DNA of 64,000 nt, taken from Bacillales bacterium UBA784 (GTDB taxonomy: Bacteria; Bacillota_I; Bacilli_A; RFN20; CAG-288). Shown here piece by piece: positions 1,913 through 45,610 of this stretch (position 1 is the first letter of the stretch; the number at the start of each line of letters is the position of its first letter). Under the pieces are notes generated by a model. That model was not told the origin of the DNA. It was given only the letters and a program-made list of their open reading frames with translations, and did no database searches. A program made the position numbers and the translations under genes. The DNA lies in contig DBJE01000003.1 of assembly GCA_002297045.1 (NCBI GenBank), forward strand, positions 65,537 through 129,536, written 5' to 3'.

Positions 1913-2556
1913 AGTTTTTTCAGTACGGAAAGAAGGAGACCGAGTATCTTTCTAGGAAGGACCATCGCCTAGATAGGATAATTCAGAAGAAACCGTTTAT
2001 CGCCCGTGAGAGGGATGAAGATATTTTTTCCTGCCTATGCCATTATATTATCGGACAGCAGATTTCTTCCTCTGCCCAGGCTTCCGTATATACCAAAAGG
2101 AAAAAGAGGGTAGGAAAAGTCAGCCCCGAATCCGTAATCCTTCTTTCTTCCTCTTCACTTTGTTCCTGTGGAAGGAATAAACGGAAGGCAGAAAATATTC
2201 TCTCTCTTGCCGCAAAAATTGTCTGTCATCAGCTCGATTTGGATCTTCTAAAAAAGAAAGATGACGAAGAGGTTATAAAGGAACTGACGTCTTTATCTGG
2301 GGTAGGAACCTGGACGGCCGAAAGGGTCCTTCTTTTTTCCAGGAACCGAAGGGATGTTTTCAGTCCATTCGACTATGGAATTATCCGTGGAATGAAAATG
2401 GTCTATCACCATCGGAAAATCACTCAGCAGATGTTCAATCGTTATAAGAAACGCTTCTCTCCTTATGGAAGCGTTGCTTCTCTTTATTTTTGGGCTGTTT
2501 CCTCCGGTGACATCTCTCTAGACGATAACGCTATTGCTAATAACGGAAACGCTTAG
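1909..2556 (+). CDS. HhH-GPD DNA glycosylase (3-methyladenine glycosylase II, AlkA-like)
   Basis: LSGVGTWTAE-AGG-VLLFS helix-hairpin-helix motif (WTAEM if AGG=Met). ATGA start/stop overlap with the upstream gene. Confidence 0.75.
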   Translation: MKFFQYGKKETEYLSRKDHRLDRIIQKKPFIARERDEDIFSCLCHYIIGQQISSSAQASVYTKRKKRVGKVSPESVILLSSSSLCSCGRNKRKAENILSLAAKIVCHQLDLDLLKKKDDEEVIKELTSLSGVGTWTAERVLLFSRNRRDVFSPFDYGIIRGMKMVYHHRKITQQMFNRYKKRFSPYGSVASLYFWAVSSGDISLDDNAIANNGNA

Positions 2557-2560
2557 TCTA

Positions 2561-2590
2561 AAAAAGGGGCGGCAGATGCCGCCCCTTTCT
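2561..2590. terminator. bidirectional rho-independent terminator
   Basis: AAAAA-GGGGCGGC-agat-GCCGCCCC-TTTCT between the convergent glycosylase and oleate hydratase genes. Confidence 0.6.
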
Positions 2591-2647
2591 ATTGCTCCTC
2601 TTCTGCCTGAAAAGGGGATACAGGCAGAAAAGATGACAATCTGGTGA

Positions 2648-4441
2648 TTATTTAATCAGTCCGCTTTCTTTAAGCAGAAGCTCGACATCCGTCCCTTTCA
2701 CCTTCTTGGTGACGATCTTAAGCAGTTCCTTCTCCTTGAAGGATAGTTTAATATCGCAAAGAGGCTTCTTGTCGATGGCATAGTAGCAGGCACGGAGAAG
2801 CTCGCGGACATCGTACTTGCTTCCCCAGACTTCCGGTACTCCACGGTCGATATTGAGCAGAGTATAGACGGCTTCCCTTCCTGTGCGCCTAGAATATTCT
2901 GTCGTGAAGATCGTGTCCCGGGGCGTCTCGGCAAACTGACCGATGAAGGCAAAGTTGACGGAGCCTTTCGGAACGACGAGAGGACGGTCGGATCCTTTCC
3001 GCGGCTGGAAGAAGGCGTTGATGTATGGCCTAAAGCAGGTCGTGGTGTTGCAGGCATTCTTGGCCAAGGACTCAATGTCCTCTTCCGGAACTCCGATGTG
3101 ATAGAGCCACTCTTTGCAGACTTCTTCGCCGGTGCATTCCTTCCTAGGCTTCTTGACAAAGTTTCCTTCTTTGTCGGTGCTAAGGGCATAGAGCCAGACA
3201 AGAATCCTGTTTTTGTCCTGGGATTTAAACTGCGGCTGACGGTTGATGGTCCAGGAAAGATACCAGTTGTCCCTGCTATCCTTCACGGTGACAATACCGC
3301 CGGTCGTGACCTTTCCGGAGCGCGGATCACGCTTGCAGATTTTCCTGATGTGGTCGATGATTTCCTGATTGGAAGTGGCGACTGTCGCACTCCTCCAGTT
3401 CGTGGCCTTGATGTCGCTACAGAAGGCATCCGGGTTTCCGTATTCCCCGTTCTTCGCCTGACTGGCGATTGCCTTCCACCTGTCCCAGGATTCTCCTTTT
3501 CCGTTCTCTAGATGGGAGAGATCCGGGGCATGGCTTTGATCCCCGTAGCAGGAGGAATCGGTGCAGCAGCCGTTGGTGATGAAGACAAGATCATCCTCAA
3601 TCAGGTCGATTGTCGCTTCCTTTCCGTCCTTGACATAGACAATCTTCTTGGCAACTTTCTTTCCGTTCACATCTTCGATGATGACGTTCTTGACGTCCCT
3701 GCCATATTCGATCTTTACTCCGTGGCTTTCGAGATATTTGACAAGGGGAAGAATCCTGCTCTCATATTGGTTATATTTGGTGAACCGAAGGGCCGAAAAA
3801 TCCGGAAGTCCGTCGATGTGATGGACATAACGGCAGAGATAACGCTTCCTTTCTAATGCACTTGACCAGCGCTGGAAGGCAAACCTAGTCTGCCAGTAAA
3901 GCCAGAAGTTCGTTGACCAGAAGGATTCCGGAAGGACGTCGGAAATCTTCTTGTCTTCCAGATCCTCTTCCGGAGTAAGGAAGAGTTTGGAAAGGGCGAG
4001 TGCAGATTCCTTGTCTAATTTGAACCTTTTGTCGGTGTGGGCATCCTCTCCGCATTTCACGGTTGCGCGGCAGAGAGAGTAGTTCGGATCATGCTTGTTC
4101 AGCCAATAGTACTCATCCAGTACGGAGTTATCCGGATTGTCTAGGCTAGGGACGGAACGGAAGGTGTCCCACCTGACTTCGAAATGATTGTCCCTTTCCC
4201 GTCCTCCGCGCCTAAAGAATCCTTTGGTCACATCCTTGCGTCCGTCGCAGCTTCCTCCGGCGAGTTCAAGCTTCTCGAGAAGATGGATATGTTCGCCTTT
4301 CCTCTGTCCGTCACGGACAAGATAGAAGGCTGCGGTAAGTCCGGCTAAGCCGGTTCCGATAATATAGGCAGACTTGCTGTCGACTCCCTGAGGCTTCTCC
4401 GGACGGGCGAATGCCTCATAATTTCCTGCGGAATAGTACAT
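2648..4441 (-). CDS. ohyA: oleate hydratase (MCRA family, FAD-dependent)
   Basis: Full-length similarity to recalled oleate hydratases: MYYSxGNYEAFARP, IIGxGLAGLxAA FAD fold, GGRE(M)xNHFE, KFTKYNQYES, FTTEYSxRTxxEAVY. No internal ATG in 597 codons. Confidence 0.95.
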   Translation of the reverse strand: MYYSAGNYEAFARPEKPQGVDSKSAYIIGTGLAGLTAAFYLVRDGQRKGEHIHLLEKLELAGGSCDGRKDVTKGFFRRGGRERDNHFEVRWDTFRSVPSLDNPDNSVLDEYYWLNKHDPNYSLCRATVKCGEDAHTDKRFKLDKESALALSKLFLTPEEDLEDKKISDVLPESFWSTNFWLYWQTRFAFQRWSSALERKRYLCRYVHHIDGLPDFSALRFTKYNQYESRILPLVKYLESHGVKIEYGRDVKNVIIEDVNGKKVAKKIVYVKDGKEATIDLIEDDLVFITNGCCTDSSCYGDQSHAPDLSHLENGKGESWDRWKAIASQAKNGEYGNPDAFCSDIKATNWRSATVATSNQEIIDHIRKICKRDPRSGKVTTGGIVTVKDSRDNWYLSWTINRQPQFKSQDKNRILVWLYALSTDKEGNFVKKPRKECTGEEVCKEWLYHIGVPEEDIESLAKNACNTTTCFRPYINAFFQPRKGSDRPLVVPKGSVNFAFIGQFAETPRDTIFTTEYSRRTGREAVYTLLNIDRGVPEVWGSKYDVRELLRACYYAIDKKPLCDIKLSFKEKELLKIVTKKVKGTDVELLLKESGLIK

Positions 4442-33764: not shown

Positions 33765-36629
33765 TTAGTCTTTAAACTTCAGTAAGCCCCTTGTAAATCC
33801 GTTTGGATTGGTGAACTTCTTCTCTCCGGCGGCAAAACGGACAGTTATATATTTGCCTTTCTTGTCTATATTTATGATTTCGCCGTCCCCAAACTTAGGA
33901 TTGACGACCTTGGCACCGACGACAATCTTAGAGAAGTCTATGTTCATGGCTTTGGCATAGTCGTTGACCTGTTTTAGAATGGGCTTGATTGTCTCTTTGG
34001 CTTTGTTATCGGCGGGGCCTGTCTTGTCTGCTTCGGTTGAAATAAGTTCCTCCGAGTTCTTCCTGGTTTCCTGCTGGTTATAGAAGAGTTTCTCGTATTC
34101 TTCTCTTCTGATTACTGTATCCCAGCCACCGACATCCTCGCCCTTATGCCTTTCCAGACCAGTATAAGAAAGAGAGGAATCCTCGTATCTCTTGAATTTG
34201 AAGATGGCGTCGTTCATCAAGGAAGCATTGAAAACACCCAAAGAGCAGAGAAGCTCGAAGTCTTTGACATCCAGTCCGGTAACCTTCTTAAACAGGTCAG
34301 GCTCAAGCTGGGTGATGACATCCTTAAGGCATCTTTCCCGGTAGTCGGTGAGGTACCTGAAGACAGGGATTCTGGTCGCGAACTTGATCAGCTTCTCCTG
34401 GATTTCCTTTCTCTTGGACTTGTATTCCTTCTCTTCTTCGGTAAGTTCTTTCTTCTGCTTCGGAGTGAGCTTGTCATCCCCGTCCTTCTTTGTGTTCTTG
34501 ACGTGTTCAGATTTGTTGATGATGGTCTCAATATCAGAGTTCAAAGAACGGAACCCTTCAATGTTCATCAAGGCATCCAAAGCCTCTTTGTTGGTCAGAA
34601 GCTTGTTTAATGTGTCATTGTCCACATTGACCAAAAGAGCCGATTCCCATCTTCTGGCAAGCAAAGTCGCAGAAGTCCCGGCCATTGCGATATCAAGGAC
34701 ATCCTGGGCATTAATCTGCTTCCTGGTCGAGCCATCATAGGCGAGAACCGGAAGGAAGCTGATGAATTCCGCAACCTTCTTTTCAGGATTGTTTCCGTCC
34801 TGATTAAGACGGCAGGAATAGTCCGAAATCTCTCTCAGGGCCCGGTCTAATGCAAAATCAAAGACATAGCATTCCTGCTTAAGAATCGTCTCCGTTCCGT
34901 CCGGATTCTTGATCGTCCAGGGGGACTGGACACGGAATGCAGACTGGAAATAGGTTTCCGGTGATTTCAGGTTCCGGAGCCTAAAGATGCCTGTCCAAGG
35001 CCGGATAGTGACGCCAGTGGTCAGCTTTCCGCAGGAGAGAGTAATCGTCTTAGTCTCCAAAGGAGACTTTCCGTCCTTCTCCCTAGAATCGATGACTGGC
35101 TTTACGGCATCAAGACCAATCCCCGCTTTCGGTCCTGCACAGAGGTTGATGGTGTAGTCATGATAGAACGTGTTCTGCCGTTCCCTGAGAAGGTTATACC
35201 TTGCTTCGCAGGAAGCGACATTCGGCAGGAACCAAAGAGTGTGGGAGAGAACATTTAAAAGACGGACATCCGAGAAGGGCATCGGAGGACGCTTGTCCTG
35301 CCCAAGTTTAAGATCGTCGATGCTGGCAGACAGGTACTGGCCTCTAATCAGATCGAGCCACTTCTGGACTTCGTTTTTGTACTTGAAAGTAGCATTCGCC
35401 CCTCTTCCTTCCGCAGAGAAGAAGACATTGAGGTCGAACTCGTTGAATTCGCCATCCATGGCGACCTGTTTGATGCTGTCTGGAATCTGATAGGTCATCA
35501 AGACCATTCTCGGCAAGGAGAGATAGGGATTGTTCGATCCCTTCCAGTTCGCCTTCGCTCTCTGTTCATCGGAATATGTCCAGTTATAAATCTGATCTTC
35601 GATGAACTCCCCGCTGTTGATTGCTCTAAAAGGAGTTCCGGAAAGGAAGAGATAATAATTCGTAGTGATAGGAAGGAATGTTTCGTTGTAGGCATTGCCC
35701 GCCTCTTCATCCTGGTATTTCTCGACGTCAAAGTCGGCATCTGCCTCTTCGTCTGGATTCTCGAAGAGCTTTTTTGCATTCTCACGCCAGGCACCAAAGT
35801 GGTATTCGTCAAAGATGACCCTGTCCCAGTTCTCTGTATGGATGAATTCGTTTTTCGCCTTTATTCCGCCGTTCTCGTTGGTCCCGAGAAGGTTCTGGAA
35901 GGAGCCGAAGACGACAATCGGCTTTGACTTGTCACACTCCGCAAATTCCTTATCCAGACGGGTACTAGAGCCCTTGGCGTCGTTGTCCGAGACAAACTGC
36001 CATCCATCGAAATCGATGTGGGTAAGCAGGTCCTCTTTCCAGGCCGATTCGACTGCAGGTTTGAAAGTGAGGATAAGGATTCTCTTCAGACCCATTCTCT
36101 TGGCAAGCTCATAGGAGGCGAAAGTCTTCCCAAAGCGCATCTTGCAGTTCCAAAGGAACTTCGGCGCCTTATTAGGCTCTTCCTCTTTGGCCTTCTTGAA
36201 GTATTCTTCCGTGTATTGGACTGCTCTGACCTGTTCAGGTCTCCTCTTGAATGTCTCTGTTCTTCCGCGTGATGTGATGATACCGTCTCTGACTTCCAAT
36301 ATGGCTTTCTTCACATCGTCCAAGGAGCATTTGAACCATTCGTTCTTGTCTTCCCCGTTGTAGAGCTGTTTGATTCCTTCTCTCTTTAAAACGGCATGGA
36401 TATCATGGTCCATGAAGCAGGTTCCGTCGGAACGCATGGCGGAAGTGACAAAGATTGTCTTATGCTTCAGACCGCTAGTATGTAACTGCTCGTTGATTCT
36501 GTCTTCATAATCCTCACGATCTGTGTATCCGATTTTCAGATAGCCATCATGAGATGGGACATCTGGAAGAGTGTAGACATATATGGTCGGTTTGACCTCT
36601 GGTCTTTGCTTAAAAAAATCCGTTGCCAT
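33765..36629 (-). CDS. restriction-type enzyme: N-terminal GIY-YIG/T5orf172 nuclease, SF2 (type III Res-like) helicase, C-terminal UvrD/PcrA-type Tudor-like tail
   Basis: IYVYTLPD...GYLKIGYT...R..EQ (GIY-YIG-like), motif I MRFGKTF, motif II VIFDEYHFG, motif III LSGTPF, QSAFRVQ. C-terminal VGAKVVNPKFGDGEIINID...VRF. Three nt downstream of the MTase gene. Confidence 0.8.
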   Translation of the reverse strand: MATDFFKQRPEVKPTIYVYTLPDVPSHDGYLKIGYTDREDYEDRINEQLHTSGLKHKTIFVTSAMRSDGTCFMDHDIHAVLKREGIKQLYNGEDKNEWFKCSLDDVKKAILEVRDGIITSRGRTETFKRRPEQVRAVQYTEEYFKKAKEEEPNKAPKFLWNCKMRFGKTFASYELAKRMGLKRILILTFKPAVESAWKEDLLTHIDFDGWQFVSDNDAKGSSTRLDKEFAECDKSKPIVVFGSFQNLLGTNENGGIKAKNEFIHTENWDRVIFDEYHFGAWRENAKKLFENPDEEADADFDVEKYQDEEAGNAYNETFLPITTNYYLFLSGTPFRAINSGEFIEDQIYNWTYSDEQRAKANWKGSNNPYLSLPRMVLMTYQIPDSIKQVAMDGEFNEFDLNVFFSAEGRGANATFKYKNEVQKWLDLIRGQYLSASIDDLKLGQDKRPPMPFSDVRLLNVLSHTLWFLPNVASCEARYNLLRERQNTFYHDYTINLCAGPKAGIGLDAVKPVIDSREKDGKSPLETKTITLSCGKLTTGVTIRPWTGIFRLRNLKSPETYFQSAFRVQSPWTIKNPDGTETILKQECYVFDFALDRALREISDYSCRLNQDGNNPEKKVAEFISFLPVLAYDGSTRKQINAQDVLDIAMAGTSATLLARRWESALLVNVDNDTLNKLLTNKEALDALMNIEGFRSLNSDIETIINKSEHVKNTKKDGDDKLTPKQKKELTEEEKEYKSKRKEIQEKLIKFATRIPVFRYLTDYRERCLKDVITQLEPDLFKKVTGLDVKDFELLCSLGVFNASLMNDAIFKFKRYEDSSLSYTGLERHKGEDVGGWDTVIRREEYEKLFYNQQETRKNSEELISTEADKTGPADNKAKETIKPILKQVNDYAKAMNIDFSKIVVGAKVVNPKFGDGEIINIDKKGKYITVRFAAGEKKFTNPNGFTRGLLKFKD

Positions 36630-36632
36630 CGA

Positions 36633-38177
36633 TTAGTTCTCCGAATGGGGCCAAACGGTTGATTCTATGTAATTAATCTCGTCATCTGTCAAGCCGAAAA
36701 AACTATACAACAGAGAATCATTCCATTCTTGGCTAAATGGAACTTTTGGAATAAAATCATAGCATCCTCGGACAGTGTCTTGAGAGACCTTTTTCAGAGA
36801 TAAGAGAAAATGGAAAAACTTTGTTTCAATATAACTTTTTACGTTTTTGGCTTCTTTTAAACTTTTAAATGGCCCACAAATTAAATATGTTCCGGAGCAG
36901 CAAGTATTAGGCTCAGCAATGATTGGTTTTACTTTATCTGTTTTGACATCTGCACTACCAACTGAGCGTGGCAAAAGAATTTTATATTTATCGATGTATT
37001 CAGCTCCTCTAGTAATTTCTGAACGTTTGATCCATCCTCTGTTTTTCATTACATATGCAAAGATGTCTGTACTAGAAGTTTTGTTTTCAGATAAAGAATT
37101 GAAAGTGGATTTGGTAGTGAAAGGCCATAGAGAACCAACAAGCTCAGAAAATGGGCTTAATCCTTTTGTACGGACCTGGTGTAATATGTCAATTGCTTCA
37201 TTATCTCTTATAATTGTGGTGCACCCAGATTCTAATAAATATCTTGATTCCTTTGATAATATTTTATTGCCAGAGTGGTTATAAAAAGTACATTTTCCTT
37301 TGTAGTTTTTATCCCATAAGAAGTAGCAAACGCCACCTTTAATTTCTACACCTGAAAAACAATCTTCAGCTTTCGGAAAATCATGAATTTCTTTTATATT
37401 ATTGGACGATGTCATATATTCTCTGAAAGTCTTTATGCATGGGAAGCCACCAGCATACCATCTAGCAGGAATAATCATGGCAACATAATTTGGTTGCAGT
37501 TTAAACGCTGCTTCAACGAATTTGTCATATAAAGGGGTTGCCTGGGCTTGCCCTCCTCCTGTACTTAATTGATATGGCGGATTACTTATTATGACGTCAA
37601 ACTTCATCTTAAATACCTCCTCCACGTTCATTCCGTGAATGAACTCATAAGCATGCGTTTCTAAATCGGATTCTCTGTCATATTCGTTTTTTGATGCGCC
37701 ACAATAAATACAAGAAGCGTGGCTTTTTCCTGATGAATCATAAACCTCTTTTTCCCAGGTGTGATTTGTTCTTTTAAACCGGATATTTCCATCCGTATTT
37801 TCGAAATGGGTAATGGAGAATTCGCTGCTTGCATTTTTGGAGCAGTAGACACTACGTCTGGAAAGAAGACTCGTGAGTTCCGTTATGGCAATTCCGAAAA
37901 GCTGCTTATGGAAGATATGGTCCACTCTCTCCTGAAGATCAGGAAACTGGTTCTCAAGTCCCTTTAAAAGTCTCTTGGCAATCTCCCGCAGGAAGACCCC
38001 TGTCTTGCAGGCTGGGTCAAGGAATGTGGTATCCGGATTCTCGAATAGTTCTTGTGGAAGCATATCGAGCATCTGATTGACGACATCCGGTGAGGTGAAG
38101 ACTTCATCGCTTGAAAGGTTGGCTAGACAGCTTAGCACATCCGGGTTATAGACCTTGTTGAATAAATCATCACTCAT
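36633..38177 (-). CDS. Eco57I-type (gamma-class) N6-adenine DNA methyltransferase
   Basis: NPDVLSCLANLSSDEVFTSPDVVNQMLDML (motif X), FLDPACKTGVFL (motif I), VIISNPPYQ (motif IV). AT-rich, and every Arg codon I spot-checked was AGA or CGN. Confidence 0.9.
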   Translation of the reverse strand: MSDDLFNKVYNPDVLSCLANLSSDEVFTSPDVVNQMLDMLPQELFENPDTTFLDPACKTGVFLREIAKRLLKGLENQFPDLQERVDHIFHKQLFGIAITELTSLLSRRSVYCSKNASSEFSITHFENTDGNIRFKRTNHTWEKEVYDSSGKSHASCIYCGASKNEYDRESDLETHAYEFIHGMNVEEVFKMKFDVIISNPPYQLSTGGGQAQATPLYDKFVEAAFKLQPNYVAMIIPARWYAGGFPCIKTFREYMTSSNNIKEIHDFPKAEDCFSGVEIKGGVCYFLWDKNYKGKCTFYNHSGNKILSKESRYLLESGCTTIIRDNEAIDILHQVRTKGLSPFSELVGSLWPFTTKSTFNSLSENKTSSTDIFAYVMKNRGWIKRSEITRGAEYIDKYKILLPRSVGSADVKTDKVKPIIAEPNTCCSGTYLICGPFKSLKEAKNVKSYIETKFFHFLLSLKKVSQDTVRGCYDFIPKVPFSQEWNDSLLYSFFGLTDDEINYIESTVWPHSEN

Positions 38178-38865
38178 AATCTTTTAACCTCTTGTAGTTC
38201 ATTACACACCGGTGGACAAACTTTCCTTCTCCGTTGTTGTTATTGTCGAAGAGGGATTCTTGCCCATTTAGGTCCCTCTCAGGATTTTCGTTCTGCTTAA
38301 GAATCTCATCGAACGTGTATTCGCTTCTGGATAGCTGAGGTCCGGTCACGAATCCCCATTCGCTGAAGACAATCGGTTTGTCTATGTCATTTCCTTTTTC
38401 GTCGACTTCATGCAACGTCAGAGCATTCCCGCAGACGATGTTTTTAGAAAGAATGAAACGGATGGAGTCCCGCCTATCCTCGCCGCATTCCTTTTTGCAG
38501 ACTGATTTGTATTGTTTGTCCCAGATTTTGAAAAGACGTTCCCGGCATGCAATCACGTTGTCCATCCTGATGTCTACGCCATATAGGCTGGATACGGCAA
38601 GAAGGGAATTCTTCTCGAAATCCATTACGCTTCGGCGGTATTTCTTCTTCACGACTGCCAGTTTTCTATCGAGAATCTCGGCAAGGAAGTTCCCGTCACC
38701 ACACGCAGGCTCCAAAAATCTTGAATCAATTCTCTGGGTTTCGTCGTTGACGAGGTCACACATCGCCTTGACTTCACGCTCATTGGTGAAGACCTCACCA
38801 TGGTCTACGACACGCTTTCTGGACTTGATCTGCCTGTTCGTTTTCTTTTTCGTTTCCTTAGGCAT
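38170..38865 (-). CDS. truncated methyltransferase-like protein (SAM-binding half only, no NPPY)
   Basis: GEVFTNEREVKAM (motif X) and FLEPACGDGNFL (motif I) and YGVDI are present, but the protein ends without a (D/N)PPY catalytic motif. Translationally coupled on both sides. Confidence 0.6.
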   Translation of the reverse strand: MPKETKKKTNRQIKSRKRVVDHGEVFTNEREVKAMCDLVNDETQRIDSRFLEPACGDGNFLAEILDRKLAVVKKKYRRSVMDFEKNSLLAVSSLYGVDIRMDNVIACRERLFKIWDKQYKSVCKKECGEDRRDSIRFILSKNIVCGNALTLHEVDEKGNDIDKPIVFSEWGFVTGPQLSRSEYTFDEILKQNENPERDLNGQESLFDNNNNGEGKFVHRCVMNYKRLKDYE

Positions 38866-39056
38866 CACTCGTCCACCTCGATCTTGTGTTTCTTGAAATA
38901 AGGAGCGAGCTTTCTCTTTGCTTTGATGGTCGGCTTATGGGAGCCTCTTTCCCAGCGGTTGACGGTCTGAAAGGAAACACCCAAAAGATCGGCTAGTTCC
39001 GTCTGCGACAATATCAAAGTGGTTCTCAGCTTCTTGACAGCTTCTGCATAGGTCAT
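38865..39056 (-). CDS. XRE-family helix-turn-helix protein (candidate controller of the R-M operon)
   Basis: LSQTELADLLGVSFQTVNRWERG HTH. Start at the ATG at 39056, 8 nt after AGGAG. Stop overlaps the next start (TGATG). Confidence 0.8.
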   Translation of the reverse strand: MTYAEAVKKLRTTLILSQTELADLLGVSFQTVNRWERGSHKPTIKAKRKLAPYFKKHKIEVDE

Positions 39057-39081
39057 AGGTCCGCTCCTGTTCTGTTTCAAA

Positions 39082-39110
39082 AGTATACCATTTTCATCCC
39101 ATTCTGTCGA
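39082..39110 (-). promoter_or_regulatory. promoter of the HTH/MTase/Res operon
   Basis: Minus strand: TCGACA, 17-nt spacer ending in TGG, then TATACT (extended -10). Confidence 0.5.
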
Positions 39111-39141
39111 TGAACCATAGAGAGGAATCTAGACTTCTCTA

Positions 39142-41019
39142 TTAGTTCTTGACCAACTGTTTAAGATATTCGCGCAGATTATCATCCTCCGCATAAATGA
39201 ATGTTCCTTTTACGCCGCGTGTAAGAAGGACTTTATAGGTGTTTCGGATCAGTCTCTCGGCTAAGGCATCATCGGCTGTTCTGATTCCGCTTGCGGAATC
39301 GCTATGGGCGTTCCTTTCCTTATGGAATTCGATTTTTCCTGTTCTCTTGTTGTAAGTAAGATCCTTTCCGATGATGACCCCCGCATATTCGACTTCCAGC
39401 CCTTGGATAGTATGAATACAGAATACGTTCCTCTTCTGCGTGTCATCCAAAATGGCCGCTCTATCCGCCTTCTTGATGTTCCAGCGTAGTTTTGTTCCGT
39501 CCTCGTATTCGAAATCGTATTTCTCGGAATCGTATTGGCTGACCCATTCATGGGTGTAGCCGGCCATCAGTCTCATCTGATGGTTGGAATTCCAAAGCTT
39601 ATTCCATTTCTCCATCCTGTCTTTCCTGGAACCCATGATTTCCACTTTGTATTTCATGCCTTTGAGGGATACGAAATCATTCGTATAACCTAGGAAATGA
39701 TTGACGAAGGCGATGTACTGCTCTCCGCCCACGCATCTGAACTGGGAGGAGAGAATCATTCTGCTATCTTCGATGACCTTCGAACCGTATTTTTCGGCAT
39801 ATTCCTTTATCTGCTTGATTGACAAATCATCGGAAGCGGTGACAACCTGATCCTCATCGATCAGAAACACGTTGACTCTTGACGCATTGAAGAGCTTGTC
39901 GATGACATCAACGCTTTTCTGCACGCCCCATCCGAACTTCCATTTCAGCCTTCGGTGGGCTTCATCGACGATAATGCAGTCAAAATCATAGGCCGCCGAC
40001 TTTGCAAAGGCGGCAGGAGTCTTGAAGAGTTCCTTGATTGCCTTCTTCGTGAAATCCTTGGTCAGGATATCGCTGAAATAAGTACGCGGAGTGAAGTTTG
40101 CGGTCACATAGCAGGCGTTGCGTCTTGGCCGTCCATCTTTTGGGTGGATGAGCTGGCCAAGCGCGTTGATGGCGACGATGGACTTGCCTGACCCCGGCCC
40201 TCCTTTTACGATGATGGTTCTTCTCTCTCCTTTTTCCAAAGCCTCCTGAACCTCGCTGACGATTTTGGAAACGGAATAGGACTGCTCGGCATCATAGGAG
40301 AAGAAGGGCTCGCCGTTGATGGCGTCTGCGACCATCTTGGAGAAGCCTTCGCTCGGTCTGATCTGGGAACTGTCGATTTCATAGAGCGTGTTGCGACTGT
40401 AGGGTTTCTTTATATATCTGGCGATGAATTCGCTGAGCTTCTTCTGATCGTCCTTTAAGAAAGCAGGTGCCTCACGCACTAAAGGATAGTCCTTTTCATT
40501 TTTCAGAAGGACTTCATATCCTTCCGGCATATTGTGGAGATACGAGCAGGCGTTCACTCCGACGTTGTTAGTATAGATATACTCGTTGAAATCCTTCCTG
40601 ATGTTGGCATAGTTCAGTGCCTGGTAGGAAGGATGCCAGTAATCGTCCACGCCATGTCCTCCATCGGTGACGACATAGTCTTTCAAGAAGGATCTTCTCA
40701 CCGAGCTCCATTGCTTGAGCTCGATAAGGATGACATTCTCTTTGTCTTTTTCGTCTCTTCCGAAAATGAGGAAGTCGACTCTCTGCTTTGTGTCGACAAG
40801 CTTATATTCGACACCGACGCCGGCTTCCTTTGGAATGGAACCATCCTCCAATGCTTCTGCCACTTTTGGAAGGGAGTGGATCCAGGAATTGTATTCGCTT
40901 ATTGATCCTCCACCGATATGGTGTGCCTTGAATCCATCCAAAAGCAACTTGCCGATGACAGGATTTGGTCCTTCACAGTTGCTTATGAAATTCCCTACAC
41001 TATCGCTATATAAAATCAT
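39142..41019 (-). CDS. DUF2075-family (Schlafen group-3-like) ATPase/helicase with N-terminal PD-(D/E)xK-like nuclease region
   Basis: N-terminal VDFLIFG...VILIELKQW nuclease-like core, Walker A KGGPGSGKS, Walker B CIIVDEAH, QFRC, C-terminal TIQGLEVEYAGVIIG and LLTRGVKG. RBS GGAGGGGG. Confidence 0.8.
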   Translation of the reverse strand: MILYSDSVGNFISNCEGPNPVIGKLLLDGFKAHHIGGGSISEYNSWIHSLPKVAEALEDGSIPKEAGVGVEYKLVDTKQRVDFLIFGRDEKDKENVILIELKQWSSVRRSFLKDYVVTDGGHGVDDYWHPSYQALNYANIRKDFNEYIYTNNVGVNACSYLHNMPEGYEVLLKNEKDYPLVREAPAFLKDDQKKLSEFIARYIKKPYSRNTLYEIDSSQIRPSEGFSKMVADAINGEPFFSYDAEQSYSVSKIVSEVQEALEKGERRTIIVKGGPGSGKSIVAINALGQLIHPKDGRPRRNACYVTANFTPRTYFSDILTKDFTKKAIKELFKTPAAFAKSAAYDFDCIIVDEAHRRLKWKFGWGVQKSVDVIDKLFNASRVNVFLIDEDQVVTASDDLSIKQIKEYAEKYGSKVIEDSRMILSSQFRCVGGEQYIAFVNHFLGYTNDFVSLKGMKYKVEIMGSRKDRMEKWNKLWNSNHQMRLMAGYTHEWVSQYDSEKYDFEYEDGTKLRWNIKKADRAAILDDTQKRNVFCIHTIQGLEVEYAGVIIGKDLTYNKRTGKIEFHKERNAHSDSASGIRTADDALAERLIRNTYKVLLTRGVKGTFIYAEDDNLREYLKQLVKN

Positions 41020-41103
41020 CAGGCCCCCTCCTATATCCTGAATAATAGTTTATAGCAGAGATATATCAGTTCGGTAATCTCTGTAGATAAAACGAAATAA
41101 GAG

Positions 41104-41536
41104 GATAAACAATAGTGTTCCTAATGGTCGTACCTCGTCTTCTGCGTTTTCCCGGAAAGGAAGATCTTTCCGTAGAACAGGAACATGTATTCGCTAAAGG
41201 ACAGTCCGCGTCCGTTCTCTTTAAGGAACGTCTTCTCCGACAGTTAGAGCTGCATACTCTTGTGGTGAATCTGGAGATGAACCGCAAAAACGCAGCATTA
41301 TTTGGGTGCACCGCCGGTTGACCGGACTGAGCAGCCTATGGGCCTATTTATCCTTCGAGAGACATTGCCACCTGCAGCAGCTGCCTGGAAAGTCTCCGGC
41401 TTTTCTTGCCTTTCCGGAGGTTCCGCGACCGGCCACAGGGGAAAGGACTATATCAACCTGCAACCGACCTCGGAACTTCAGCAATGTAGTACGGAAATTA
41501 AACCGTCTCCCATGGCCGGGAACACTATTGTTTATC
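41104..41536. other. 433-bp GC-rich non-coding element closed by perfect 18-bp inverted repeats (structured RNA, MITE or invertible segment)
   Basis: GATAAACAATAGTGTTCC (41104..41121) is the exact reverse complement of 41519..41536. The interior looks markedly GC-richer than the AT-rich flanks, with many internal stems and no credible ORF. Confidence 0.6.
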
Positions 41537-41617
41537 TTTTTTATTATTTTTTTGCTTTTTCAATCAAATCATCCACGCTTCCTATAGTGTCAACTAGCTT
41601 ACGCAATAATCAGCTTT

Positions 41618-41676
41618 TGATTGAACTATAAACGAACTTCTGATTGAACTAATCATTGAACTAATGATTGAACTAA
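41618..41676 (+). repeat. iteron-like repeats: T(G/C)ATTGAACTA four times, three in 12-bp tandem phase
   Basis: Copies start at 41618, 41641, 41653 and 41665, in the AT-rich region at the right edge of the island. Confidence 0.75.
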
Positions 41677-41918
41677 TTAGATACTATGCGAAGACAAATC
41701 AGCCTATAGTATGAACTTTAAGAGCTGTCAATAGTAAAACCATCGATGGTCTTAAAAAAGCTGTTTTTGATGCAGCCAAGAGTGGTAGTGACATTGTCAG
41801 TAGCTATAATAGCAAAAGAGTTGCTTTTAGCCTATTATTTCAGTTTTGCCGATTTACGATAGCTTCTATCAGAAATTAACAATTTATTAATTTTTACTAA
41901 ACTTAGGTCTACAGGATA

Positions 41919-41953
41919 TAAAAAAGGAACAGAGGAAAAACATCTTCTGTTCC
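41919..41953 (-). terminator. rho-independent terminator after the ABC exporter operon
   Basis: Minus strand: GGAACAGA-loop-TCTGTTCC followed by TTTTTTAT. Confidence 0.7.
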
Positions 41954-41960
41954 ATTCTGT

Positions 41961-43808
41961 TTAGCTTAGTTCCACCTTTCCGGTATAGAGGTCATAGTAC
42001 TTCTTGTGAAGGGCGAGAAGCTCATCCTGTGTTCCTCTTTCCTGAATGACGCCATGTTCAAGGACAATGATTTCATCGGCATCCCGGATGGTGCTAAGAC
42101 GGTGGGCAATCCTAATCGTTGATCTAGACCGCCTTAATTCGTTAAGGCTCTTCTGGATCAACAGCTCGCTTCTTGTATCGATGTTGCTTGTCGCCTCATC
42201 GAGGATGAGAACCGGAGGCTGGTTTAAGGTGGCACGGGTTAGGCCGAGAAGCTGACGCTGCCCTTCGGAAAGATTGGCTCCGTCATCATATAGCCTAGTC
42301 TCGTATCCCTTAGGAGTACGGCGGATAAAGGAATCGGCCTGCGTCTTCTCGGCGGCCTTGACGACTTCTTCCTTAGTTGAATGGCGCCGGACATACCGGA
42401 TGTTGTTCTCGATCGTATCGGTGAAAAGATGGGTATCCTGGGTGACCATGGAGAGGGCACGGCGGAGGGACTCTAGGGAGATGTCCCTGATATTGATTCC
42501 GTCATAGGTGATTTCCCCGGAGTCAATCGGATAGAATCTGGCAAGTAAGGAGATGATGGTTGTCTTTCCGGCGCCGGTGGCGCCGACAAAGGCGGTCTTC
42601 TTTCCTCTGTGGCATTCAAAGGAGATGTCCTTTAGGATGGGCTTTCCTTTGACGTAGGAGAAGTAGACATGCTTGAATTCAATCTTGCCTTCGACTGGAA
42701 TCAGACTTCCATCCTCTTTCTTCCAGGCATAGCGCTTAGAAAAGTCTTCATCATCGGAGACTTTCTCTAAGGTAATCTTTCCGGTCTCTTTCTCCTCCTG
42801 CTCGTCGAGGAAGCCAAAGACGCGCTCAGCTCCTGCCCTGGCGGCAAGGATGTTGTTTAAATGCCTGGTGAAGTAGTTGAACGGACGGCAGGCATTACGG
42901 ACTAAGACAAGATAAGACTGTAACTGACCGAAGTTGAAGCTTCCCCTAGTCCCCGTGCAGAGGGCGAAAACACCCATGACGGAAGAGACGGCAAAGTTAA
43001 GATAGGAGAGGGAGACAAAGAAAGGAGTATTCCTCTGCGTGTGGTAGAAAGCAAGTGAACTTGCACTTCTCCATTCCTCATTCGCCTTCTCGAACTTTTC
43101 GAAGCTTTCCTTTTCGTGGTTGAAGGCCTTGATGACTCTCGTTCCGGAGATATCCTCTTCCGCAACGGAATTGACATGGCTTAATGCCTGCTGGGTCTTA
43201 TCGAAATAGCGCCGTGAAATCTTTGCATTGATGACCATGAAGACCATCCTAACAAAGATGAAGAAGACGACAATCAGGGAGAGATAGACATTGAGAATGA
43301 ATAAGGAGACGATGGTTCCTATCCTGTTTGTCGCGGACATGACGATGTTGGCAAGGGAGTCGTTGAGACAGTTAAGGATGGAGTCGACGTCGTTGGTGAA
43401 GAAGGACCTAATCTCTCCGTGGGTATGGGTATCGAAATAGCCGATAGGGAGAGACTGCCTTTTCGCCCTTAACTGGCTGCGGAGTCTAAAGAGGATTTTC
43501 TGGGTCAGTACGACCCTGATTTCATTATGGATGAGGGCGCAGAGCACACCGGCTGAATAAAGGGCAATTAATTTGATTCCCCTGTTCCTGTACTCCTGCC
43601 AGCGAGTGGCCTTATCAAGAGTCTGGGAATTAAGAATATAGTTCGTCCTATCTCCGGCATACCTTGTCCCGACAAGGTTGGCTACCGCGGTAAACACGGT
43701 CCTAAGGAGAACGAGAAGGAAAAGGAACCAATAAGGTTTGAAATAGGACCTGAGACGGAAGAAGGTTCCCTTAAGGTTCTTCGGACGGGCACGATTAGTG
43801 AATTTCAT
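41961..43808 (-). CDS. ABC exporter, fused permease/ATPase (heterodimer subunit 2)
   Basis: Six-TM domain, Walker A GATGAGKTT, LSEGQRQLL, Walker B ILILDEATS, H-loop IAHRL. Confidence 0.9.
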   Translation of the reverse strand: MKFTNRARPKNLKGTFFRLRSYFKPYWFLFLLVLLRTVFTAVANLVGTRYAGDRTNYILNSQTLDKATRWQEYRNRGIKLIALYSAGVLCALIHNEIRVVLTQKILFRLRSQLRAKRQSLPIGYFDTHTHGEIRSFFTNDVDSILNCLNDSLANIVMSATNRIGTIVSLFILNVYLSLIVVFFIFVRMVFMVINAKISRRYFDKTQQALSHVNSVAEEDISGTRVIKAFNHEKESFEKFEKANEEWRSASSLAFYHTQRNTPFFVSLSYLNFAVSSVMGVFALCTGTRGSFNFGQLQSYLVLVRNACRPFNYFTRHLNNILAARAGAERVFGFLDEQEEKETGKITLEKVSDDEDFSKRYAWKKEDGSLIPVEGKIEFKHVYFSYVKGKPILKDISFECHRGKKTAFVGATGAGKTTIISLLARFYPIDSGEITYDGINIRDISLESLRRALSMVTQDTHLFTDTIENNIRYVRRHSTKEEVVKAAEKTQADSFIRRTPKGYETRLYDDGANLSEGQRQLLGLTRATLNQPPVLILDEATSNIDTRSELLIQKSLNELRRSRSTIRIAHRLSTIRDADEIIVLEHGVIQERGTQDELLALHKKYYDLYTGKVELS

Positions 43809-45610
43809 TTTGTAAGTCCCTCCTTCTGAATCGAATAAATGTCCTGATAAATCGGATCATGCTCCAAAAGCCAGGAAGATGTGCCGATATTGTTGATTCT
43901 GCCGTCCTTAAGGACGATGATGCGGTCACTGTCCTCGATTGTCGACGTCTTCTGGGAGATGACAATCTTCGTCCTTTCCGGATAGCAGTCCTTTAGGTTC
44001 TTCTTCAGCCGGCTTTCCGTTATCCGGTCTAGGGCAGAGAAGGAATCATCGAGAATCAGGATCTTAGGATGGCGGAGCAAGGCTCTTGCGATGCATAATC
44101 GCTGTCTCTGCCCACCCGAGACGTTGCTTCCTGACTGGCCGATCTGGGTGTCTAGCCCTTTCGGAAGGCTTTCCCTGATGAAATCATAGCAGCAGGCAAT
44201 CTTGCAGGCCTGGATGATTTCCTCTTCACTTGCCTTTGGATTCCCCCAGAGAAGGTTTTCTCTCACCGTTCCGGTGAAAAGAAGCGGAGACTGGAAGGCA
44301 ATGGCGGTCTCCTTCCGGATCTCTTCTAAGGAATAGTCTTTAATCGGGTGACCGCCTATTCTGATTTCCCCCTTGTTGATATCATAGAAACGCTCAATCA
44401 GATAAATCAGAGTCGACTTAGAGGCTCCTGTCTCTCCAAGGATACCGATGGTTTCCCCGCTGTTGATGGAGAAACTGACATCGCTAAGGACGTCTTCCTT
44501 TGCGCTTTTATCGTATTTGAAGAAGACATGGTCAAAGGATATTGAGCCATCTTCTAGTTTCAGGGAAGAAGTAGGATTATCTTTAATCTCACTTTCTGCC
44601 GAAAAGACTTCTTTCACCCGTTCCACTGACGCAGAGGAACGGGTGAAGAGCATGAAGACGGAGGAAATCCTCTCTAAGGATGCCCTCCTTTGCGTGGTGT
44701 AGCTAAGGAAGGAGGTGATATTGGTCACCTCGTTTTTGATATCTGCGGGGATGGTGAAGTTCTCAATGATGTTGTTTCCGCCGATGAGGAGGATTCCGCA
44801 GATGCAGGCATAGGTCATCAACTGGGTGATGGCCCTATTGGAACCGACAAGGGCCAAGGATTTCCTTGATACGCTCTTGACCTGCGTGTTGACTAGGTTG
44901 AATTTCTCTTCCTCATAGTCCTTCTTGGCGTTGGCACGGATGAGCTTCCTCGCCCGCAGGGATTCGTCGGTCGTCCGGTTGACTCTGTCCCTAGCCTTCT
45001 GTAAGGCATAGAAGTGGGGGCGGGAGCAGAGGACGACCACAGTTAAGGCAAGGGCCAGAAGAGGAATGGATATCGCATAGACGATGGTCAGCTTCGTCGA
45101 AATCCTTACAGCAAAGACGAGGGCAAAAAGAAGCTGGAAGGGTCCGCGCAGAAAAGGGCGAAGGGACTGGCAGAAGCTATCGGAAATCAATTGGACATCG
45201 TTGGTCCTTCTTGTGATCAGGGAATTGACCCGGAACTGATCAAGGTTGGAAAAGGAAAATGCCTGGATTTTCTTGTACTCTTCCTTTCTCAGTTCATAGC
45301 CGAACCCTCTTCCTGCCTTGGCGGTTTCCTTGGCGCTTACAAGGCCAAGGACGAAGGCAAGAAGGGCAAAGCCGATCCTTACTCCGGCAATCCTTAAGAC
45401 GAACCCACGGTCATAGGAATAGCTTCCGTCCTTATTTAGGTTCCTGCCGTTAAGAAGCCTGATGTTCCTTAAAAACGGAAGGGAAATCTCCAGTGCGTTT
45501 TCCAGCCTGATACAGGCGCAGGCAGGAATCAGATTGGCCTTATAAGGCTTCCTGTATGTCCAAAGAGAAACGGTTTCCTTTTTCTTCTTTGTATGGATTG
45601 TTTTATTCAT
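43805..45610 (-). CDS. ABC exporter, fused permease/ATPase (heterodimer subunit 1)
   Basis: TM domain, Walker A GETGASKST, VSGGQRQRLCIARA, ILILDDSFSALD. ATGA overlap with the partner gene. Confidence 0.9.
   Translation of the reverse strand: MNKTIHTKKKKETVSLWTYRKPYKANLIPACACIRLENALEISLPFLRNIRLLNGRNLNKDGSYSYDRGFVLRIAGVRIGFALLAFVLGLVSAKETAKAGRGFGYELRKEEYKKIQAFSFSNLDQFRVNSLITRRTNDVQLISDSFCQSLRPFLRGPFQLLFALVFAVRISTKLTIVYAISIPLLALALTVVVLCSRPHFYALQKARDRVNRTTDESLRARKLIRANAKKDYEEEKFNLVNTQVKSVSRKSLALVGSNRAITQLMTYACICGILLIGGNNIIENFTIPADIKNEVTNITSFLSYTTQRRASLERISSVFMLFTRSSASVERVKEVFSAESEIKDNPTSSLKLEDGSISFDHVFFKYDKSAKEDVLSDVSFSINSGETIGILGETGASKSTLIYLIERFYDINKGEIRIGGHPIKDYSLEEIRKETAIAFQSPLLFTGTVRENLLWGNPKASEEEIIQACKIACCYDFIRESLPKGLDTQIGQSGSNVSGGQRQRLCIARALLRHPKILILDDSFSALDRITESRLKKNLKDCYPERTKIVISQKTSTIEDSDRIIVLKDGRINNIGTSSWLLEHDPIYQDIYSIQKEGLTK

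Follow-up and report, generated by a model that had tools for sequence, protein, structure and literature searches.

The locus raises the question of what a 433-bp non-coding element, closed by perfect inverted repeats, is doing at the edge of a defence island. An earlier note had offered a structured RNA, a miniature transposable element or an invertible switch. In the window, by which we mean the whole 64-kb stretch of DNA analysed, the sequence GATAAACAATAGTGTTCC at 41104-41121 (+) recurs at 41519-41536 as its exact reverse complement, with 18 of 18 positions pairing. These are the only two matches to the 18-mer in the window even when up to three mismatches are allowed, compared with a shuffle expectation of 0.02, so the 18-bp repeats that the earlier note had placed at the element's edges are exact and hardly due to chance. 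The element was also described there as GC-richer than its flanks. This holds against the two flanking intergenic spacers (36.9% and 31.4% GC), as the element has a GC content of 50.3% and its interior 51.9%; however, the neighbouring genes reach 47-49% and the whole window 46.3%, so the excess over coding DNA is only slight. Thus, it is the spacers that are unusually AT-rich, and the contrast is one with the spacers and not with the genome.

Two minus-strand genes, 940 bp apart, surround the element. On one side, a SLFN-group-3/DUF2075 helicase gene (39142-41019, -) starts at 41019, which confirms the distance of about 85 bp given earlier, while an ABC-transporter operon (41961-45610, -) is found on the other side. 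To the left of the helicase gene are an HTH gene, a split Eco57I/MmeI-type methyltransferase and a T5orf172-ResIII helicase, which together form a defence/restriction-modification island. At 36633-38868 (-), the Eco57I/N6-methylase ORF (514 aa) overlaps the preceding 232-aa MmeI_Mtase-like ORF by 8 nt, and the two look like one type IIG/IIL-like methyltransferase gene, either split or encoding two subunits. The spacer between the element and the ABC operon contains four tandem units of about 12 nt (TGATTGAACTAA) at 41611-41677. It also holds a hairpin, GGAACAGAAGATGTTTTTCCTCTGTTCC, followed by TTTTTTAT, at 41920-41953 (-), which probably acts as intrinsic terminator for the ABC-transporter operon; the scan listed this hairpin on the plus strand only.

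We looked for relatives of the element through its ends. When one genome per species was scanned for exact matches to the 18-mer, 12 loci were obtained, roughly the chance expectation, but two of them showed further flanking and internal similarity: one in a Bacillales metagenome-assembled genome (MAG; L008) and one in a Candidatus Enteromonas MAG (L004). The same scan of metagenome contigs returned 21 loci, 13 of which were clearly homologous. Nine other genome loci and eight metagenome loci holding the 18-mer were discarded as chance or coding matches, since they had no further similarity. A mismatch-tolerant scan of public contigs revealed more than 10 related elements of 449-2116 nt within the same inverted repeats. 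The complete copies measured 449 (L022), 688 (L032), 745 (L016), 829 (L020), 832 (L026b), 835 (L023 and L026a, each), 847 (L024) and 2116 nt (L008), and every related copy terminates in the same 18-mer with zero to two mismatches. One metagenome supplied several copies, their contigs being similar in coverage, and two were present on a single 213-kb contig. The flanks of the copies are AT-rich and differ from copy to copy. The different flanks, the many copies and the variable interior deletions are those of a mobile repeat and are unlike a structured RNA. Blastn of the element against plasmids and phages gave no match, nor did the 847-nt copy against plasmids at the DNA level or the 18-mer scan of viral contigs.

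The longer copies connected this multi-copy family of variable length to a transposase. When read from the end corresponding to 41536 toward that corresponding to 41104, the 847-nt copy contains a 242-aa ORF, which matched the IS1/IS1595 zinc-binding domain NF050000 at 34.2 bits (cutoff 28) and, partially, an IS1595 transposase (E 1.4e-9). A protein search identified relatives of 286 aa in clusters of up to 175 member sequences, for which no name was found in the public sources searched. The contigs encoding the 286-aa protein carry an intact unit of 1028 bp, which starts with GAGAAGGATAAACAATAGTGTTGC and ends in its reverse complement with one mismatch. The intact element was found as a stand-alone contig of 1027-1031 nt in many assemblies, as is typical of collapsed repeats. 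Intact copies were present in SRR1747018 and SRR1747059, whose accession numbers neighbour those of the window's genome (SRR1747052 and SRR1747054).

In the intact relatives, NF050000 scored 44.2, 38.6 and 42.4 bits against the cutoff of 28. The IS1595 model NF033547 aligned to two clusters (P0004 and P0006) over positions 1-214/215 with an E of 1.8e-13 and 50.9 bits, which is below its curated cutoff of 75, and Pfam PF12762 (DDE_Tnp_IS1595) gave E values of 0.012-0.036, also below threshold. A tblastn search of plasmids matched 110 records, and the annotated ones among the matches listed were IS1595-family transposases with 22-35% identity (best E 9e-12). The 286-aa protein contains the blocks VWVD(121)HTY, VYHD(189)MGHF, NPVN(220)RLCAQVK and LWLSEKAF. 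This points to D121, D189 and N220 (D in P0006) as the predicted catalytic residues, spaced by 67 and 30 residues and with a K at +7, behind a predicted N-terminal zinc ribbon. An asparagine is accepted as the third catalytic residue in some IS1595 subgroups, and we take its presence here to fit those of the 'DDNK' type. The full-length matches, although below threshold, and the motifs together argue for the IS1595 assignment.

Comparison with intact copies also suggested where the insertion sequence (IS) begins and ends. Their terminal inverted repeat spans about 24 nt, GAGAAG-GATAAACAATAGTGTTGC, and GAGAAG/AAGAA precedes GGATAAAC at the start of both the intact copies and the stand-alone contigs of about 1028 nt. 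Thus, the true ends of the window element probably lie 5-6 nt outside the 18-mer. The putative outermost nucleotides would be TAAGAG at 41098-41103 (+), where intact copies have (G/A)AGAAG, and TTTTTT at 41537-41542 (-), where they have CTTCTC; both would be degenerate. By convention, the repeat on the transposase-upstream side (IRL) is the one at 41519-41536 (-), an 18-nt perfect match to the other end with the conserved transposase leader inward of it, and the one on the transposase-downstream side (IRR) is the 18 nt at 41104-41121 (+), which align to columns 1-18 of our MAFFT alignment A2.

What remains of the transposase gene lies between these ends. In A2, the window aligns with the copies of about 847 nt at columns 1-312 and 725-853 and is gapped at 313-724, and blastn against the 847-nt copy likewise aligned positions 1-295 and 720-847 of the copy. 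Both place the junction of an internal deletion of about 410 nt, specific to the window copy, at approximately 41398-41399. The retained transposase leader (promoter/5' UTR region) occupies 41399-41518 (-; A2 columns 725-835) and corresponds to the first 135 nt or so of intact copies. On the other side of the junction, tblastn and A2 revealed a transposase pseudogene remnant at 41133-41398 (-) with frameshift(s) and in-frame stops, equivalent to about aa 135-152 and 194-281 of the 286-aa protein. Intact transposases matched it with E values of 6e-16 (P0003) and 6e-13 (P0004), and the matching segments, about aa 130-152, 194-231 and 230-281, lie in different frames with stop codons between them. 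The search found no such remnants elsewhere in the window or on the plus strand, and no other IS fragments in the window. The order on the minus strand is thus IRL (41536-41519), the leader to about 41399, the deletion junction, the decayed C-terminal part (41398-41133) and IRR (41121-41104). With the deletion, the gene has lost its start codon and about 130 codons at its 5' end. Missing from the window copy are aa 1 to about 130, with the zinc ribbon and the first catalytic aspartate, and aa 153-193, with the second. Since both ends and the interior are homologous to the IS, we are highly confident that the 433-bp element is a defective, internally deleted single copy of an as yet unnamed IS1595-family insertion sequence (IS1/IS1595 superfamily).

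The leader contains a hairpin at about 41420-41476 (-; columns 59-134 of alignment A3) of the form GTTCCGAGGxCxG...CxGxCCCGGAAC. It is kept in all copies, including the intact ones, with compensatory changes at six pairs, and may regulate the transposase as a structure in its mRNA, or else serve as a subterminal binding site.

The copies of about 690-847 nt (L016, L020, L023, L024, both copies of L026, and L032) all share one in-frame loss of transposase aa ~153-193, the second catalytic aspartate included. They are a non-autonomous lineage that kept multiplying at many different sites, presumably mobilised in trans by the 1028-bp element.

Four ORFs had been noted inside the element as lacking credibility. 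All four exist and none has a meaningful Pfam match; they are by-products of the decayed transposase sequence. One of them, searched against the protein database, had no relative beyond itself. The ORF of 65-68 aa at 41115-41321 (+) is called as a gene in public assemblies (8488-8685 in L013) and forms its own protein cluster of 14 members (P0001), an annotation artefact. We considered it as a real small gene, as AGGA, 9 nt and GTG are conserved in L008 and a stretch FPGK(E/K)DLS is common to both, but the inverted repeat and the transposase C terminus encoded on the opposite strand account for this conservation. With the ORF itself as the sole database relative and no Pfam match, the small gene was rejected, and a type-I-toxin-like mRNA with a 5'-3' fold-back was dropped on the same grounds.

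Other derivatives carry a passenger. In L008 (1494-3621), an AAA_14/DUF4143 ATPase gene takes the place of the transposase between the IS ends, of which about 85 nt (IRL side) and about 106 nt (IRR side) persist. The complete 2116-nt unit sits between direct repeats of 8-9 bp, TTTTCATA(T), and thus looks like a mobile insertion cassette. The locus in L004 (3588-5395) has an ATPase about 90% identical and only the IRL side, and its homology to L008 extends about 255 nt outside IRL; in L037, an intact IS of 1028 nt (2357-3384) adjoins another AAA_14/DUF4143 gene (643-1983). From L008 and L004, the parent had been taken for a transposon with this ATPase as its sole gene, an idea that was dropped once the metagenome scan gave transposase-bearing copies. 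The ATPase element is a passenger-carrying derivative.

The earlier remark that the element lacks a target-site duplication was borne out, as a search for direct repeats of 7-10 nt at offsets of 0-12 nt found none flanking it. Duplications were detected in two relatives, an 8-bp ATTTTCAA around an intact copy (L046) and the 8-9-bp TTTTCATA of L008, and in none of the other related copies examined; some of the contigs without one may be chimeric across the repeat, or recombinant. The window's own case is illuminated by a contig from a close relative (L022) that covers the orthologous site. Its first 617 nt match window positions 42385-41770 with 98.7% identity, and the spacer abutting the IRL end, aaaagcaaaaaaataataaaaa, is common to both. 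The relic at this site is 449 nt long, differently deleted and about 88% identical to that of the window over the shared IRL-side end and the adjoining spacer, which indicates that the insertion is old. Within the spacer, 173 nt of the window (41597-41770) correspond to 39 nt in L022. Beyond the IRR end (1165-3287 of L022 versus 33765-41103 of the window), the DNA is wholly different: the relative has a 496-aa ORF and a fragment resembling, by eye, the C terminus of a C5-methyltransferase, while the SLFN-helicase island is absent. Because the different islands start exactly at the IRR terminus, the present left flank does not appear to be the original target, and the duplication is probably missing because the IRR-side flank was replaced. 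The difference between the two strains suggests a hotspot for defence islands that is anchored at the IS end.

These comparisons also bear on the other explanations for the element. It might be a large structured non-coding RNA with a closing helix of 18 bp, or up to 23 bp with G-U pairs, acting as a leader or an independent RNA of the defence island. The element as a whole does fold better than shuffled sequences (z -3.9 on the plus and -5.2 on the minus strand), a T-run follows the 3' arm on the plus strand, and one internal hairpin is conserved with some covariation. However, once the terminal arms were taken off, the 397-nt interior folded no better than shuffles (z -1.4 and -1.7, respectively). 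Thus, the fold signal stems entirely from the arms, and the interior is not packed with further stems as had been suggested. Rfam returned no match in the element at either the gathering threshold or E<=10; over the whole window at the gathering threshold and over 40900-42000 at E<=10, it gave only one tRNA and chance-level matches. Across eight copies, 15 of the 18 pairs of the closing helix are invariant and three vary by breaking only (four cells), with no compensatory change, and intact copies have one uncompensated mismatch between the arms. In addition, the relatives differ in their interiors by hundreds of nucleotides, with lengths between 433 and 2116 nt; the interior shows homology to a protein-coding gene in the form of the decayed transposase; and the conserved hairpin is part of the leader that precedes the transposase gene in the intact IS. 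We consider an RNA gene highly improbable and read the closing 'helix' as a pair of predicted protein-binding ends.

An inverton that switches expression of the adjacent SLFN-helicase/defence island would account for perfect inverted repeats around some 400 bp immediately upstream of the first island gene, and the transposase leader is indeed directed toward that gene. Nevertheless, the repeats form the termini of a transposon family whose members occur in many unrelated contexts, and a promoter-like site lies between the element and the first island gene. The eight neighbouring proteins scanned include no invertase or recombinase, in agreement with the earlier note. Only one orientation was seen: three loci (L013-L015) from the assemblies of two sequencing runs are 100% identical to the window and colinear with it across the element, and with respect to the ABC gene the relic at the orthologous site in L022 is oriented in the same way. 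A switch of this kind is therefore very unlikely. A bona fide MITE, amplified and inserted in its present 433-bp form, comes closer. The short, non-coding element has intact terminal inverted repeats, and the family has multiplied non-autonomous lineages, as shown by the copies of about 830-847 nt with one common deletion. The search for copies elsewhere that the earlier note had advised did uncover a multi-copy family, but none of about 25 loci shares the window's deletion junction. The absent target-site duplication also speaks against a MITE, and the differently deleted 449-nt relic at the orthologous site in the related strain argues for an old insertion followed by independent decay or recombination. 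What stands of the MITE proposal is an internally deleted, IS1595-like non-autonomous derivative; with no duplication, one copy in the window and an unshared junction, it is improbable that the element is a MITE in the strict sense.

For the decayed insertion sequence, we propose the following history, in which the order of events, the mechanism of transposition and the reason for the lost duplication are inferred. A copy would have entered the AT-rich spacer that follows the ABC-transporter operon by the usual route, with the transposase bound to the terminal repeats and 8 bp of the target duplicated on insertion. This copy may have been part of, or recombined with, the non-autonomous lineage of about 840 bp that had already lost aa 153-193. 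A further stretch of about 410 bp, which began shortly before the start codon and reached approximately codon 130, would then have been lost, leaving both ends, the transposase leader and the frame-shifted C-terminal remnant of the gene on the minus strand. The island of SLFN helicase, methyltransferase and T5orf172 protein at the IRR end would represent a replacement flank. The relic would now be inert, and movable only with an intact transposase supplied in trans.

As such, the element is ordinary genomic debris that will not surprise a specialist, and its unnamed parent IS is of minor value for annotation. It should be labelled as an IS relic, that is, a mobile-element pseudogene, rather than an RNA gene, and the four spurious ORFs should not be called. 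The relic marks the exact boundary between conserved core DNA, represented by the ABC transporter operon, and a strain-variable defence island, a position in keeping with the widespread view that islands turn over by breaking and joining at IS copies. The parent IS is abundant in gut metagenomes and stays below the thresholds of the curated transposase models; annotation would therefore benefit from a name for it. We tentatively raise the possibility that the parent represents a distinct unnamed clade of IS1595-like insertion sequences in gut Firmicutes, which spawns multiplying non-autonomous lineages, can carry an AAA_14/DUF4143 ATPase gene in place of the transposase, and whose relics serve as recombination anchors for the exchange of defence/restriction-modification islands between close strains.

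Among known systems, MITEs and other internally deleted IS derivatives resemble the relic in being short and non-coding, in having both terminal repeats of a parent IS and in originating by internal deletion. The relic departs from MITEs in that it has no duplication, no amplified 433-bp form was seen and recognisable pseudogene remnants are still present. The IS1 family shares with the parent an N-terminal zinc-binding domain, NF050000 covering both families; however, the IS1 transposase model matched the parent only partially (E 1.5e-11), over 82 of 199 positions at the N terminus, leaving the catalytic half unmatched, and the parent has one continuous ORF in contrast to the frameshifted InsA/InsB pair of IS1.

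The IS1595 family is defined in ISfinder and by Siguier, Gagnevin and Chandler (2009), as relayed in PMC8101967 and PMC12561309. According to PMC8101967, its members have a single transposase gene encoding an N-terminal zinc finger and a C-terminal DDE_Tnp_IS1595 domain, and the zinc ribbon is absent only in the IS1016 subgroup; 8-bp target-site duplications are given in both sources (PMC8101967; PMC12561309). The parent differs from the family in scoring below the NCBIfam and Pfam cutoffs, in being just 22-35% identical to annotated transposases and in having N (D in one cluster) rather than E at the third catalytic position. The window copy differs further in that the functional gene is altogether missing and there is no target-site duplication. 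Like the family, the parent is about 1 kb long, with a single transposase gene, short terminal inverted repeats and a zinc ribbon. Its catalytic domain can be aligned over the full model, 8-bp duplications are present in two clean cases, and it shares a preference for AT-rich intergenic sites and the occurrence of passenger-gene derivatives. Furthermore, the VWVDHTY, VYHDMGHF, NPVNRLCAQVK and LWLSEKAF blocks of the parent resemble, by eye, the catalytic blocks DESYFG, VYTD, NGIENFWSQAK and ECEFRFN of ISApl4 (PMC12561309).
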